Source: Lobosporangium transversale (taxonomy: Eukaryota). Taken from it: DNA of 64,000 nt. Positions 25,162 to 54,555 of this stretch are shown here, one piece after another. Under the pieces are notes generated by a model, which was given only the letters and a program-made list of their open reading frames with translations, had not been told where the DNA came from and did no database searches. The position numbers and the translations under genes are program-made. Position 1 is the first letter of the stretch. Each line of letters begins with the position of its first letter. The DNA lies in contig NW_019028988.1 in the NCBI RefSeq assembly GCF_002105155.1, positions 372,001 to 436,000 on the forward strand, written 5' to 3'.

Positions 25162-27328
25162 ATATTCCAGTTGTTGGGATGCGTTTCAGATCCATGTTTT
25201 ATTAATATATATTTAATATTCTCTCATGAACGTTTCATGAAATGGATACCTCGAGCGGAGTTTTATACCATGTGAATGCTATTTTTACATCGTGGTTTTT
25301 TTTTCTTCCTTCTTTCCAACATGCCATTGCTCTGCATTAGATTTTGTTATGTTGCTGCATGATGACACTTGCCAGCATATTCCCATGTTAACAGATGTAT
25401 CAATATGCTTGTATATTGTCTATATTGTCTATACATGCATCGAACATTTATACTTAAATAATCATAGTATTGCCTTTTGTGAAAAGCAATTCACCTTAAC
25501 GCACTGAAATGTATATGTGATAAATAGTATATATATGCTCGTAGGCAAGCATTATGCCACAATATATTACTGGTTTCATCTCTAAAGTGTAATATAGACG
25601 CCAGATGATCTTCATATGTCATCCTAAAGCAGTCAATGCTTACATCTTTTTTCTTTCGTTGTACTCACCTATAAGTTTAGTAGTTCACAGCGTAGTAATT
25701 CACAATCCCATTTTGGTCGAGCTGTAGGTTCTTTGCAGATTCGTGTATAATGTGAACAGATGACATGTCTGCAATCATGATAAAAAAAGCTGGTTTTCCC
25801 TCAGCTTGGACTGTACCTTTTGATTCCCCACGCTCGTTCATCTTGTATTATCGAATGACTGAGCTTCCTCGTTAGAGACTGCAGGCACATTGGCGGCCTC
25901 GTTGGAATTTCTGTAAACAATATCCATTGCCCTTTCGCTGCCACGTTTTTTGAAAAGTTCAAACTCATCTTTTTAACCGATTATAACAGGCTAATTATGT
26001 TTTTTAGTGTTTAGTGGAAATGCTATACAAATGTAACACAGCTGGCGGAGGAAAAAAAGTTGCGCCAAAGCAAACAAACGGAGTCCCAACAAAAGGTTAA
26101 AGGCAATATGGCCGCATTGCTCTCATGACCACTAAGACATGAAGTAGACCTCAGCCCAGACTCAGAACCTTTTTACTCGGCTCCACTCCAAACTCTATGC
26201 ATACAAAACAAAGTGGTTAGCAAAGCAACTTTTGAGTAGGCAGTATATTTATTGAAAAATATTATTATATATATATTTATATATTATATATATATCTATA
26301 TGTATTTATACTTACATGCCTCAAGTGTATCGGCAAGTTCATCGCAGTGGAATGTAAAAATTAGCCACCATTACAATTCAATCATCGTCTTTTGGTATGA
26401 ATCACACCAAGGAATGGGTATATGTATACATGTGGCGGGACATGCCTGTTCCAAGCAAAGTTCATCCTTTTTTTTTCTTCGGCGGTTTTAATCCCAATGT
26501 CATTTCATGTCTAGCCTGCATGTGCACGACCACATCTGAGCATGGTGATGCTTTTATTCAATGATGAGCCATATTTTTCCATCTCCTTCTCCGCGGAAAG
26601 GACAAAAACGATCAAACAAGCTGAGCAACAGGGTCAAAATGTATGCTATGCATATCATACTCTTGCGAAGCTCTTAACGTGGAGAAAAGGCTTCAGCCTC
26701 ACAAATCACACAGACGACTTCAATTAAATATCTAAATTCGTTCTACTTCTTCACATTCTTTTTGGTTTTGTATCTTGTCACGGACTGATGGATTCCAGAC
26801 TTTTCTCTCATACTTCTTCCTTTCTTTGCCTGGCCATGAACCTAACTGCGAGGCTCACTATTTCGTACGGTAGTATACAATAATACGTATTCAATATATA
26901 TATTTATATATATATATTATATATATATATATTTTTTATATTATGGGTATAAAAATATAATGTATATATTAGTCTGCGAAACCTTGGGGCTCATTTGTTT
27001 AGAATGGAAGTAGAGAAACATGCAAAGAAAACATTATGATGGCACCATGCGTCTTGCTAAACCTTTTTTTTTTTCTCCTGCTCAGAAAGAATCGTATAAG
27101 AAGAGAGGATCCCCTTTTTTTTTTCTTTTCTTTTTATTTTTTTAATCTATCTTCTAACACCAACCTTTGACTTCGTCTCAGTTTCGGATACTCCATTTCG
27201 TTCGAGATTACTATACCCTAATAATACTTCTTTATCCAACAGTCTCAGCAACTTTTATTCATTTTTTCCACCAGGCTCCTTAGCTCCTTAAAACTTCATA
27301 TACTACCACCTATAAACCATTTCTTGCT

Positions 27329-48245: not shown

Positions 48246-49216
48246 TGTTACAAATATCGACTGAGTGTGAATAGGGGATATGAAGCAACAATCAGTAGAT
48301 CGGATGAGGGGACACTGAAAAGTAAAAAGTCGTTCTTATTAATGGAAGGAATGAGTTGAATGAGCAAGAATCTGGTAGAATGAGAATCGAGTGAGAATGG
48401 GAAAAAAAGGTACAAACAAGGAGTGATATTGCGCAGAGGAGGAGAGAGAAAGAGAAGGAGGAAAAAAATATATGTATGTATACATATACGCCGAGCGGCC
48501 CTCTTGCTTTTTAGACGGGACAGAGTTACCTTATTCTGCTACAACAGCCAGAAGCCATTGTTTGTCCTTGTTCTGTTCGCGTCTGTGAGGATTGTAAACA
48601 GAATGTGAGCACAAAAAAGAAATTTCCCCACCATTTTCTTGTGCTCGGTCTTGTTAGTTATTTCCAAACAAAATCCGAGATTGTGTTCCTTTAATTCCCT
48701 ACAATGATACCCAGAATAGTTCCCAGCACTTCATATAGGAGAAATTGGTCCCTGAATGTGCCCGCAATGAGCAGCGAGTGTGTGCGCATGGGTATATGGA
48801 GTAAATGGTATTGGAGTAAAGGGCACTGGAGTTAGTCCTATTGCCGATATGAAGAAGGAAGTAAGGGAGAATAGATAGATTATTAAAAGAACAAAAAGAT
48901 ACAGACTTGCCTCCGTAACCTTTTCTACTGGTGTACTGTGTTGACAAGAAGACAATAATAGGCAATTCTCCAAGCGCAAGTATTCAACTGCTCTGTAGGG
49001 GACAAATGAGACGATCCTTGCATTTTATCACCATCACATCATACCAAATCGCTACCTATTGTACGAAAAGGCGGTGCAATCATTCCATTGGCTTGCAAAA
49101 GAAAAGAAAGTAAATCGGCTCAAAAAGCTTGAAGGCATTCACATCCGGACCCATGGAGTGGTGTCTTTATTGAAGGATTCTTTTTTGTATGCACAATACT
49201 GGTTTTTTTTTTTCTT

Positions 49217-49255
<39 letters not shown>

Positions 49256-49966
49256 AAGCAGACAGGATATATTATAAAAATGGTGGCAAAGGACACAAAG
49301 AAAACAGCTCACTTTAAAAAATATGTGTATTCTTCCCATGCTCAAAATTCCTCCGGACTATCCCGTCGTCCGAAAGATACGCCAATAGGCTATTTGTCAT
49401 CAACAGTCTCATGTCTCGATAAACACTCTAGACTTTACTGATCAAGCTGGAATAAAAATAACGCGTCCATCACAAGTGATTTTGAGGACTTTTTGATCAA
49501 TACAAGACCTTCTACATTGCTCTTTATCTGTCTCTATTCCTTTCTTCCTTTCTTTTTTTTTGTACATAAGAATATAAGGCAGACTAGACTTAGCAGACTA
49601 AGTCCCCTTGGAAGAGGTATCACTTGTAACGAACTTTCTTTTATATTCCTTTATTGTTCATTGCCTTTACACCTTAATATGTTCTTGTTATTATTCCAAT
49701 CTTTTTACTCAGCCACGCAAACATCCATACCATTTTATACAATTCATTTTATACAATTATTTTTCATACAAACACAATGTTGTGTTCGCTTAGATCTGAA
49801 GAAGTAGCAGAAGAAAAAGAGTTTGATCACGATGCCTGGTTGCTCACTATCAATGCACACATATATAGTCCGTCCCATTAAAAAACGAGACATTCCATCT
49901 ATTGTAAAAAGAAGAAATGTATTAGAACACAGAAATAAATAAATAAATAAATTAACCAAGAAAAAA

Positions 49967-50039
49967 AAGTATTATCAAGCCAATACTTACAATTTTTTTA
50001 AGACGAAGGCCTTTCTGGACCTAGTCATGTTTGTAGTAG
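49967..50039 (-). ncRNA. Candidate Fanzor omega-RNA scaffold (3'-end copy)
   Basis: Begins 8 nt after the Fanzor stop codon; nested stems TACAA/TTGTA, GAC/GTC, AGGTC/GGCCT and hairpin AAGTATT/AATACTT. Confidence 0.5.
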
Positions 50040-50047
50040 ATTGTGTC

Positions 50048-52925
50048 CTACTGTTGTTGCCGGCTTGTCTCTCCCCCTCCTCCTGGACCCAGCAAAGGTC
50101 CTTTCGGTGGTCTTGATCCCTCTACTCCTCCTCCTCCTTCATCTGAAAATTTCCTTTTTGTGGATCTGCTACTACCACCACCACTGCCACCACTACCTCC
50201 ACCGCCGCCACTACCGCTAGAAGCTTGGCCTTGAGTTCCTCCGTCCGGCGGCATATATTTTGCAGGTCGTTTTTGCTCTCTTATCTGCGACTCACAGACC
50301 CTTGCGATGTTCTCAGCACCAACAGCATCTCGATCAAAGTATGCTTTACAATTTCGACAGTACTTGGATCGAAAAGGAACATTCTCCAATATACTGTCAC
50401 AGTGAGGCCGTGGACACTTGGCAGATGTGTAGTATTTATGACAACCTACAATGGGGTAGTCTAGAGATTTTGCCTGTTCGAGCCAGATTTAATACTCGTT
50501 AAAAAAAAGACTCAAAAATTAAATGTCATTGATCAAAGGATTTTTTTTTTACCTTTTCAACAAGCTTCTTCATCAATATCCCATGCTTCGATACTTGTCC
50601 TCGGTTTGTCTTGAATGATCCTAGTCCAATACAGATCACCGCATTCGTATTGGCATCTCTTCTTCTTCCATTGCTTCCGCCCGCAAGCTTCAGAATTGCC
50701 TTGATCACATAATCAACGCATCCGTTCTGTGCTTTTCTATTATCCCAGCTATTCCGAACAAACCACCCGTCATTATAGAAATCGACAAGCGCCCTATATA
50801 TAGTCTCCCTATTGTCGTCACTGGTCCTAGATCCACTGCTACTACTGGCCTCAACTCCACTGCTACTACCGGTCCCTGCTCCACTACCAGAGAAACTACC
50901 TCCAGTACTTGATGGAGCTTGATTTAGCGGCAAGCTCATATAAGCGAAATACTGTGTTAAAGTAGGCCTTGAGAATGTCGGAATATTGCTTTCAATCTCT
51001 GTAATTCCTCTTCTAAGCTTTCGCCTCTCTAGCTCGCCCTGAAACTTCTTGGATGGTTTGTAAAGGTACGCTCTAGAAATCCGGAGGATCTCACGTTCGT
51101 TAGGTTTCCTTGGATCCAACTTTGCAATTGTCATCGAGTACCTCTCGCCTGGATCGATCCCAATGATAATGGTACTTTCGGGGGGAGGGCATGCTGCCCG
51201 GGTGTCATATTTAACTTCTACATTCTCGAGGAGACGGGATCTCTGCTTCCAGTTGATCTCACGCCGGGGACTGGGACTCACCGGGGACAGTGGATTTGTG
51301 CTCGATGTACCTTCTTCAGCTGCTTCTTCTCCCTCGTCGCCTTCTAAGAATGGTTCATCAACTTCCAGCAAGTCAATATCGCTGATACCCAGCAAGATAT
51401 CGTCATCTTCATTTCCGTCGTCGTCTCCATCATCACCACCATCACCTGCACCATGGCCTGAAGACGAGGATCCCTGCTGAGCACTTGAAGAAGCCTGGAC
51501 TGCTTGAGATCTTTGAGTATCCGAAGGTTGGGCAGCTTGCGAACCTCTACCTCTTTTTGCTTCGATGTGTCATAGGCAAGAAGTGTTAGGGTAAGGCCGT
51601 TTGTAAAGAACGATGTCCGTAGTTTCCTTCTAGGTCCATCATCAGATTGCAGTCCAACGTCCTTGTATCCTTTCAAGGAAAACAGCTCCTGCAACAATAT
51701 CCCCTTGTGGTTAAGGATCTTGTCCTCTGCAGCCCCCTTGGTACTCATGTTTAGTTCCAACAATTGGACTATTTCCTCTCGAACTGTTGGGTTAGACCAT
51801 AATATATCCAGGAGGCAGGCTTCCGTTAGGCAGAGAGACTGAGGCGGGAAAGCAGACGTAGGGAAATCCAGATATTTTTTGGCAGTTTTTTGCTCAAAAA
51901 AGAATTGGATGGAACTTCTTCCATCGCCTGGAATATCTATGTCAAACTAGACATTATATTGAAGAAATGATTAGGAACATTTCTATAAACATATTATATT
52001 TACCTGCGCATTCCGATAGTGAGACCTTAGCGCTGCTTGAACAGGGACCATGACCATCCGAGGCGACTTGCCGATCACCAAATCGGGATAGATCTGGTTT
52101 AAAGGACCAAGCCCTGTCTTTGCATAGAAGTTTTCGTATGCTTTGAGCTGGGACGGCTTGGCTACGTTCCCTTCGCCTTTTTTCTTCACTTCCCTGCTAT
52201 CAAGAACTTCATCTAGGAGTTGTGGGAGATCAGCTGGATTGGATGGCCCAGTGGTAAGCAGGTTATCGATCCACAAGGCGCAGGCCCAGAAAGCTCGAAT
52301 CCGTGCCTCATTCAACATTTAATAAATGATTGAATGAGCCCTTGAATTGTTGCAGCAAGTTGCTCGGGATTGAGATTGGGATCGGAAGTAGAGTCCAGCT
52401 TGGCAACTACACATGTCTTTAACGTGCCCAGCGTTAATGCAACAGTGGGGTGGACCCTCTTCAACCGTCGGTCCTCGGCAGTAGCCTCCTTCACTTTCCT
52501 GGTCTTATCAGTCTTTCTGATATACTTGGCCTTCCCTTTGTTCTTCTTTTTTTTCTTCTTTTCCTCCTTAACCTCCTCTTCTTTCTCATCCTCTTTTTTT
52601 TCCTTTTCCTTTTTTTTGGGGGACTTTCTTTGATGGCTGGAGCTGACGGGACGGTCGTGTTGTTTGCGATTCGGCTTTGCGCGTTTAGGGATATAGAATC
52701 TAATTAGGAACAACAATGTCAAGTGTTAGATGACTTTTTTTTTTTTTTTTTTTTTTTTTTGTATATGCTTTGGAAAATGTTCATTTGAAGGAGCTTACCT
52801 GGGTTGAGGTTGATTATTTTTATTCTGGTACCTAGCAGATATCGCAGTCCTCATTCTATCATGGTAATGAAGGAATCTTTCAGCGGTTGGTTGCTGCGAG
52901 GCCTGGGTTTGGATCCAGTTGCATA
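50048..52925 (-). pseudogene. Fanzor (TnpB-derived RuvC RNA-guided nuclease) gene; spliced, frameshifted, 5'-truncated
   Basis: SFFTNGLTLTLLAYDT, RuvC-I IIIGIDPGE (51147-51161), ICIGLGSF, GCHKYYTSAKCPRPHC...YCRNC zinc finger, RuvC-III FDRDAVGAENI (50327-50335); introns 52700-52798, 51947-52003, 50474-50552; frameshifts near 52315 and ~51500. Confidence 0.85.
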
Positions 52926-53130
52926 TTTCACAGTACACGTGTTACATGAAAATTTATAATACAGACATACTAACAGTTCTATGTCCCATGGTGTGGTGCC
53001 CGAGACAAACTTGCAGTTTTATTTTGATACAAATTTGGATAAATGCCCCATGGATGTGATGTGTGAACCCACATCCTATTCTCACTTCTGCTCCCTGGTT
53101 ACTATTTGTCTGTCTAAAATTTTTCATGAG

Positions 53131-53203
53131 CTACTACAAACATGACTAGGTCGGAAAAGGCCTTCGTCTTGAAAAAATTGTAAGTATTAGCTTGACAGTG
53201 CTT
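53131..53203 (+). ncRNA. Second, outward-facing copy of the candidate omega-RNA scaffold
   Basis: 89% identical to 49967-50039; differences lie mostly in loops or create G-U pairs. Confidence 0.4.
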
Positions 53204-53778
53204 TCTTGACTAAACTCTTTATTTCTATGCTTGGTCTAGATGGTGTTTTTTTATGGGGAGAACTATTTAGACAACATATAGACCCCACATATCTTAATCC
53301 TAATAAATTGACTTGGTGGCATTGTTGTAAAAAATATCTTTGCTTAAGGGACAGAAAGATAGACACAATCAGGAAAAGGTAGGACAAAGAGTGTCAACAA
53401 GATTGACAAGAGAAAATAGAGTCAAATAACCTTGACTACAAACAGCGCCATAGAATGTCAAAAGAAAAGATGGGAGCTTTATAGGTGAGCTCACAAACTG
53501 AGTTACCGGAAGACAAATGCTTGTTGTGAAAAGGGGAAAAAGATAAATGGCAAGATGAACTGCGGATGAAGAATAAGACATGTGGGGAAAACTGAAGACT
53601 TTATTAAGAAGGAAGTTTCTTTGGCTTTTATACTCGGTAGTTTCTAGGTGAGGCGGACCCGCCTATGACTACAAAGGCTTTGCGCAAAGATTCCTTTAAG
53701 CTGGTTCGACAGATTAGTGGATACAAGATAAACTGAAATTAATTTTAATGACCAGTTGACCAGTCACACCACTTGCAA

Positions 53779-54024
53779 TAACAAGCGAGTCAATTGGCTG
53801 CCAATACATTTAAGAGTATTCAAAAAATATAAGGGATCGCGACCAAATGGAACGGGCTATACCTTATATTTTTAATCTAAAAACGATGATTGAATTGTTC
53901 TGGTGGCATCTCACTACGTGACGGACTTGCAACAATACTCGTAACAAGCGAGCTAATTGGCTGCCAATACACTCGAAAGTATTCAAAAAATATAAGGTAT
54001 CGCGACCAAATGAAACGGGCTATA
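53779..54024 (+). repeat. Imperfect direct repeat of ~83 bp (53779-53861 and 53942-54024)
   Basis: TAACAAGCGAG..AATTGGCTGCCAATACA..AGTATTCAAAAAATATAAGG.ATCGCGACCAAATG.AACGGGCTATA occurs twice. Confidence 0.9.
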
Positions 54025-54555
54025 TCGTGACCAAATAAAATTGGCGATACCAAACTTTTCGTGCCATTGATTTTATTGAACATTGCTGACCAAAAGTATT
54101 CCAAAATTAGACGAGGAGGTGAATTGTTCGGTTTCTGCATCATCAAAGTGTTGAAGAGAGAAGGACAGGGGAAAGAAAGTCCTTATTTTTCGACTTTGCA
54201 AATATCGTCGTTACACGAACTAAAATATGGAATTCTTCACATTCTTTCGTGGGCTTCGATCGTCATTTATTGGTGCGACCGTACCGCAGCTGCCAATAAA
54301 AGTGCAACTCAAAGCTGCAACAGCCCACTTTGATGAGAGAATATAGCCCACTCTTTAGTGTAAAAGTTTATGTCACTTAAACTTCCGCGGAAGCTTTTTC
54401 CGGTGCAAAAAAACGCCGTCTTATGCAGATCCTTCATGTTTAGATTTCTACTTTGAACATGTTATAAAAGGGTTACTGTTCCCTCAACAGAAACCAAAAA
54501 AAAAAAAACCCCCCTCAGTCACTCATTTAGACTATCAGAAATCATACAGTGTACC

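Follow-up and report, generated by a model that had tools for sequence, protein, structure and literature searches.

Background

Among the closest described counterparts of the locus reported here is the SpuFz1 system. According to the available sections of PMC10432273, its omegaRNA scaffold lies between the stop codon of the nuclease gene and the right end of the element, the 14-15 nt guide comes from the flank, and the last stem is closed by TGG/CTA. The same sections describe ghost loci, scaffold copies without a protein gene that are followed by variable flank. In the solved Fanzor1 RNAs, as presented in part of PMC11423790, the first stem-loop has 7 bp, SpuFz1 and PpFz1 have one more before the guide (4 bp in PpFz1), and the region past stem-loop 1 is described as unconstrained. 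The letters of the target site form part of the scaffold (PMC10711439, available in part). PpFz1 is from Parasitella parasitica, a related early-diverging fungus, and has the motif ATN; in the accessible part of PMC11423790, yeast served to define its RNA, which was taken to be contiguous.

Splicing and guide function occur on one transposon transcript in the IStrons (excerpts of PMC10690162 and PMC13521648). Fungal U3 snoRNAs with spliceosomal introns are structured and non-coding and likewise depend on processing by the spliceosome, but they are host housekeeping RNAs, not nuclease guides, and are not mobile (PMC5832005, in part). How Fanzor guide RNAs are processed in their hosts was called an open question in the available text of PMC10690162. 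The word intron was absent from the main text, as far as available, of PMC10432273, PMC10711439 and PMC11423790; the intron passages of PMC10530073 concern Fanzor genes (12 of the 26 places), and the Fanzor passages of a 2026 review, PMC13565253, name no intron in the RNA (12 of 15 places). No report of a spliced Fanzor guide RNA was found in literature searches, whose scope did not extend to subscription papers and bioRxiv supplements.

The locus lies in a 64,000-nt stretch of Lobosporangium transversale DNA (contig NW_019028988.1, positions 372,001 to 436,000), referred to as the window, whose numbering is used throughout. A broken Fanzor1 gene is flanked by two scaffold copies in inverted orientation, designated A and B. 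Copy A resembles the SpuFz1 scaffold in that it lies after the stop codon and before the element end with variable flank beyond and has a predicted terminal stem closed by ATGG/CTAT, and it resembles the PpFz1 RNA in having, as predicted, a 7-bp first stem-loop and one short stem-loop. However, the 75-nt SpuFz1 scaffold is contiguous, whereas that of copy A is split by an intron. Copy B may, like the ghost loci, be a scaffold without its own protein gene, but fixed sequence follows it where the ghost loci have variable flank. What is known here is a Fanzor1 system and what is new is a spliceosomal intron within its guide-RNA scaffold. The features are as follows (a colon within a motif marks a splice site).

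50048..52916, minus strand: Fanzor1 gene, 5'-truncated and broken (PF07282, E 2e-06; protein matches; contigs)
49991..50039, minus strand: copy A exon 1 (leader, stem-loop 1, A-rich linker), beginning 8 nt past the Fanzor stop codon and homologous to the stretch after the stop codon of a distant metagenome locus, L001
49899..49990, minus strand: copy A spliceosomal intron of 92 nt (49898 and 49991 joined in X7 alone of the four runs; motifs)
49865..49898, minus strand: copy A exon 2 with the terminal stem-loop, in which ATGG/CTAT closes the stem (depth, contig ends, folding)
49850..49864, minus strand: copy A predicted guide in the host flank (from the element end and the 14-15 nt SpuFz1 guides)
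52916..53130, plus strand: non-coding multi-copy stretch before copy B, cut at 52916 in the window and extending further in contigs
53131..53179, plus strand: copy B exon 1, 45/49 identical to A
53180..53239, plus strand: copy B predicted intron, 60 nt, at the same position as that of A (TT:GTAAGT ... TAG:ATGG signals)
53240..53266, plus strand: copy B exon 2, ATGG ... CTAT (alignment with A)
53267..53515, plus strand: fixed sequence beyond copy B, common to about 23 copies (contig depth)

Results

A broken Fanzor1 gene between inverted scaffold copies

The pieces of the gene were 91-100% identical to proteins of Lobosporangium transversale and 28-57% identical to Mortierella proteins. By sequence match it belongs to the Fanzor1 branch: the pieces match P0197 (XP_021884711.1) at 83-98%, and this protein is classed as FZ1 in the supplement of PMC10432273, as far as that was available. 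Three introns (52798-52700, 52003-51947 and 50552-50474) interrupt the gene. The window's own copy is dead; it is truncated at the 5' end, has frameshifts near 52317 and 51553 and a short in-frame loss near 52666, and at codon 50437-50435 its RuvC-II Glu is replaced by Lys. No remnant of the 5' half was found in the window. Sister-copy contigs retain the reading frame and the Glu codon. The DPG motif, the Glu before the zinc finger and the third Asp were all present in four of ten annotated family proteins (P0006, P0196, P0197, P0198), while the catalytic motifs of the remainder were partial or altered. The depth of the Fanzor exons was 16-21-fold, with 13-15-fold in the bins at 52700-52915.

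Four full-length Mortierella relatives (P0003, P0005, P0007, P0008) have an N-terminal XPG/FEN1-like nuclease domain (residues ~1-300) fused to Fanzor1, with profile matches to Rad2, Exo1 and FEN1 (E 9e-05 to 3e-03) and to XPG_I_2 (E 0.0017, below the cut-off). None of the best 12 literature matches treated XPG/FEN1 and Fanzor together.

The arms, 49963-50039 and 53131-53207, span 77 nt, are 88% complementary (blastn E 3e-24) and constitute the longest inverted repeat of the window, homopolymers aside. A first-pass annotation had recognized a putative scaffold duplicated in inverted orientation, with 8 differences in 73 nt, and both the arrangement and the positions of the differences were confirmed (9 differences in 77 nt): three are in the first loop, one of them private to the window's own copy of B by contig comparison, one is in the A-rich stretch, two flank the second loop, and two convert A-U to G-U pairs. 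The identification as a Fanzor omegaRNA scaffold also held, stem-loop 1 being backed by L001. An Rfam search gave no family at either arm, just weak chance matches, and identity with an IStron was rejected, as the Rfam search of 49000-54500 gave no self-splicing group I intron.

The differences had been taken as a sign of selection on RNA structure, which two sequences do not show. When 8 changes with the same transition bias were placed at random, all 15 pairs were kept in 15-19% of 200,000 trials; the pattern is not significant because few positions are paired (30 of 73) and the changes are mostly transitions (7 of 8). The outward strand folded better than the inward strand in both copies, clearly so only for B (z -2.17 vs +0.57, compared with -1.31 vs -1.17 for A).

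A spliceosomal intron in copy A

Four sequence runs, all of them in the form of contigs, were compared over 49400-53700. X1, X2 and X4 are DNA. No listed run is recorded as RNA, and X7 likely behaves as RNA, a status that is taken from its behaviour and comes with no strand or level: its depth was zero across the single-copy flank 49400-49831 and its contigs end at the coding-exon borders 52004 (exactly) and 50475 (with 2 shared letters beyond). The copy numbers given here are contig depth ratios and thus rough.

Copy A very probably contains a GT-AG intron. On the minus strand it begins with GTAAGT and has a branch-like CTAAT 27 nt before the end, a pyrimidine run and a final TAG. Contig 16 of X7 consists of 519 letters, 485 (49991-50475) joined exactly to 34 (49865-49898), so that the missing 92 nt have GT..AG ends; this contig accounts for 241.5 of the depth of 245.5 at 50289. 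The join 49898/49991 was found in no contig of the DNA runs X1, X2 and X4, and the removal in RNA-like sequence is seen in one run. Among the 127,816 places where the window could have a 92-nt skip, 395 give GT..AG ends and copy A alone gives GTAAGT..YAG. Since the spliced contig holds the alleles of sister copies rather than those of the window copy, splicing is shown for the family and not for the copy in the window.

The exon structure accounts for two further statements of the first-pass annotation. The intron's opening 24 nt, which lie over the 5' splice site, make up what had been called the second hairpin of the scaffold, and the last exon corresponds to the "outer repeat". The inner core is indeed better conserved than the outer repeat, but the cause is the presence of an intron followed by a short last exon: exon 1 is identical in A and B at 45 of 49 positions, the introns differ in length (92 vs 60 nt, 32 gap columns), and the last exons share 22 of 27 positions with one 7-nt gap.

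The right end of the element was placed at 49865 +/- 2 bases, behind GGACTAT, from the drop to single-copy depth left of about 49865 and from two contigs that diverge into other flanks before 49863. The spliced contig also stops at 49865. No close target of either predicted guide was found within the window, the best having 3 mismatches in 15.

Folding of spliced and unspliced forms

In the spliced copy A (83 nt), the predicted pairing probabilities were 0.76-0.98 for stem-loop 1 and 0.64-0.97 for the terminal ATGG/CTAT stem, as against 0.10-0.42 and 0.02-0.22 when the intron was retained, and the fold z was -3.2 vs -1.0. As modelled, the spliced form of A matches the known layout of stem-loop 1, short linker, terminal stem and guide, and the unspliced form does not. 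Copy B behaved in the opposite way. With 8-20 nt of its fixed downstream sequence, the terminal stem had probabilities of 0.98-1.0 unspliced vs 0-0.03 spliced (0.01-0.43 when majority letters were used): in the unspliced RNA the fixed tail pairs with the 3' end of the intron, and in the spliced RNA it disrupts the terminal stem.

A distant relative with the same layout

Protein scans of metagenomes yielded a single relative, L001 (one locus of 120 candidates), so that just three homologous loci were available for computation. None of 66 candidates in viral contigs and none of 38 in prokaryote contigs qualified in the protein scans, and the scaffold pattern was absent from the viral contigs. 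The homology of L001 to exon 1, located after its stop codon, scored 53.5, whereas none of 300 shuffles exceeded 45. Copy A, copy B and L001 share the borders TT:GTAAGT and TAG:ATGG around middles of 92, 60 and 99 nt, respectively, and conservation in all three extends past the splice site to cover the intron's first 24 nt. In L001, 6 nt separate the 99-nt intron from a second GTAAGT, and a further 89 nt lead to AGCTAT; a second intron, with a weaker AAG acceptor, is predicted from the sequence. A structural reading keeps the 7 pairs of stem-loop 1, two of them altered on both sides relative to A. The fully spliced L001 RNA would have 60 nt with 7 + 4 pairs, although the terminal stem has a probability of just 0.33. 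Folding the three spliced forms to a consensus gave no useful information, with -1.2 kcal/mol and a shifted register, and the MAFFT alignment, which misaligned stem-loop 1 of L001, was set aside as a basis for counting pairs.

The end of the L001 element has an independent check. It is inserted in a sorting-nexin gene, for which 22 of the 27 listed homologues have M[GN]FW(S) as their last residues, and the sorting nexin breaks off exactly at the predicted end of the terminal stem. At L001:1865-1891 the element end supplants the conserved last residues of the nexin and supplies a new stop codon. The splice junction is 57 nt past the stop codon both in A (49991-50047) and in L001 (1635-1691), the protein tails being different.

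Copy B and the surrounding repeat

Copy B retains the splice signals, and the X7 contig over it, among the contigs listed, was unspliced at a depth of 16.8. In the three DNA runs a single contig extends from 52916/52918 through copy B to 53334-53515, at 22.5, 23.5 and 22.8 times the single-copy depth in X1, X2 and X4, respectively, and multi-copy depth continues to the right of B to at least 53700. Since the sequence beyond B is fixed in about 23 copies, B likely yields no flank-derived guide, and it is a homologous cassette in fixed repeat DNA. Consequently, the proposal that the element makes two guide RNAs, one reading into each flank, did not survive, B not being an element end. The alternative offered with it, a stand-alone locus from a second element, is possible.

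To the right of 52854 the window contains no Fanzor-like coding match, and the part upstream of B is missing. Both sides break at 52916: one contig reads on in the Fanzor frame (by-eye translation), and the contigs of B carry letters before 52916 that are absent from the window, 42 in X2 and X4 and 245 in X7. These breaks fit an internal deletion in one large element. X2 and X4, on the other hand, have four contigs each with unrelated letters before 52918 (agreement 0.53), which fits the end of a separate repeat. That copy B belongs to the same full-length element as the Fanzor gene has, in our estimate, an almost even chance.

Several other features of this region were noted. Upstream of B, in 52933-52976, there are a TATAA (52955) and an acceptor-like CTAACAG (52970-52976). 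The fixed sequence 53266-53285 is an imperfect inverted match to 53097-53118, just upstream of the scaffold, at a level reached by 0.2% of 3000 shuffles for a region chosen after the match was seen, and the fixed downstream sequence of B can also pair with the 3' end of the intron. No tandem array was found to the right of B. Two direct copies of an 83-nt sequence (53779-53861 / 53942-54024) lie 163 nt apart at 90% identity, shorter echoes of them extend to 54109, and they may represent subterminal repeats of the repeat that carries B. A 29-nt inverted match, 90% identical, links 53879-53907 and 26364-26392. The stretch between 53335, where several other contigs join, and 53632, where they leave, is thus common to further repeat families.

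Possible splice signals at Mucorales and Parasitella ends

The right ends of 14 Mucorales families in the available part of the DNA supplement of PMC3627910 (ROr-1 to 4, PBl-1 to 3 and MCi-1 to 7, with MCi-2A-D counted once and MCi-8 to 10 left out) were read by eye, on sequence only. GTAAG was present in the 3' non-coding end of eight families (ROr-2, 3 and 4; PBl-1 and 2; MCi-1, 4 and 6), for which the chance is roughly 2e-4, the families not being independent. ROr-1 and PBl-3 have a weaker GTA site, MCi-2 and MCi-3 have the motif only in the apparent coding tail, and MCi-5 and MCi-7 have none. The site is directly preceded, in ROr-1, ROr-2, ROr-3 and MCi-1, by letters complementary to the element tip together with the TA duplication, and in PBl-1 a pyrimidine run and TAG lie two bases from the tip.

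The two Parasitella omegaRNAs in the accessible part of the PMC10432273 supplement (rows ID58 and ID59) both hold CAG:GTAAGC at positions 36-44. Their "guide" letters are near-identical at both loci, and CTAAT with a pyrimidine run forms the end of one of the two RNAs. The splice motif and the common "guide" letters suggest that the PpFz1 RNA retains an intron; the Parasitella omegaRNA behind the PpFz1 structure, judged from its letters, may thus be an unspliced precursor. For both Parasitella entries no motif was found in the first screen, according to the available text of PMC10432273. PpFz1 cut DNA in vitro with the unspliced scaffold that holds CAG:GTAAGC (PMC11423790, in part).

Discussion

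The data are best accounted for, in our judgement, if splicing builds the working guide of copy A by joining stem-loop 1 to the terminal stem, which we consider probable. The transcript, presumably an RNA polymerase II mRNA, would span the Fanzor gene and the scaffold and run into the flank, as X7 contigs do. The spliceosome would then take out 92 nt, 57 nt past the stop codon, as seen for sister copies in one run, and the product would be a scaffold of 83 nt with the predicted fold plus about 15 nt of flank, if it is trimmed as in other Fanzors and TnpB. Once loaded with this guide, an intact sister protein could cleave empty sites that lie behind a motif whose last letters are AT. The conservation of the first 24 nt of the intron suggests that the hairpin may matter, whether by covering the splice site or by contributing to an unspliced RNA that is itself active; more speculatively, it may adjust the level of splicing from its place over the 5' splice site.

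In a different reading, which we regard as unlikely, the intron exists but guide activity belongs to the unspliced RNA, and splicing, which takes away part of the scaffold, produces an mRNA that is guide-less or marked for decay, an arrangement likened to the antagonism in bacterial IStrons. The conserved 5' end of the intron with its hairpin across the splice site would be explained, as would a leader for which pairing across the splice site appears feasible at each of the three loci, the formation of both stems by unspliced B, and the in vitro activity of PpFz1. The mRNA decay rule places the limit at 50-55 nt, and the junctions in A and L001 are near it. Against this reading, the unspliced A RNA loses both stems in silico, neither the length nor the middle of the intron is conserved, and L001 would require a 248-nt scaffold. 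By-eye reading of several Mucorales ends also places the tip-complementary arm 130-290 nt from the tip and directly ahead of the splice site. The assembly of the guide of copy A by splicing is retained as the preferred reading.

The role of copy B can be weighed separately. It may have been built into the 5' region of the same element and transcribed away from the Fanzor gene, giving a second guide of fixed, element-encoded sequence, with the window copy having lost the stretch between B and the gene by internal deletion. The copy numbers are similar (about 23 for B vs 16-21 for the Fanzor exons), both sides are cut at 52916, and B has lost neither stem-loop 1 nor the splice signals nor the terminal motif. 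However, unrelated letters such as those before 52918 would be expected where a separate unit ends, the fixed tail makes spliced B misfold, and the X7 depth on B (17-26, unspliced) could be explained by DNA carry-over from a 23-copy repeat. We consider a working second guide from B improbable; this judgement concerns the guide and not the mere membership of B in the element, for which the chances were put higher above. A pair of long terminal inverted repeats, both reading into host flanks, would account for the inverted orientation around the gene and for homology that extends out to the CTAT end, but the same sequence lies beyond B in about 23 copies and multi-copy depth continues to 53700. 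A terminal inverted repeat pair is rejected on this ground, unless the contigs were mis-collapsed, and its probability is very small. A cassette homologous to A, embedded in fixed repeat DNA, is the favoured description of copy B.

A wider scheme is offered tentatively, and we would sooner expect parts of it to fail than the whole to hold. The Fanzor1 guides of Mucorales and Mortierellaceae may be made by the spliceosome, with introns that bring stem-loop 1 and the terminal stem to the guide and that, in some families, excise a long terminal repeat which the transposase needs in the DNA. The hairpin at the 5' splice site would then act as a switch. The Parasitella omegaRNA, as published, would be a precursor that has yet to be spliced and whose "guide" is intronic, and a constant guide encoded by the element would come from copy B.

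Conclusions

The intron in the scaffold links an RNA-guided nuclease to polymerase II transcription and to host splicing. It offers a way for one stretch of DNA to be both a transposon end and a compact guide. If this is true, screens in yeast, E. coli and cell-free systems, as well as scaffold predictions based on DNA, would misplace the guide in this clade.
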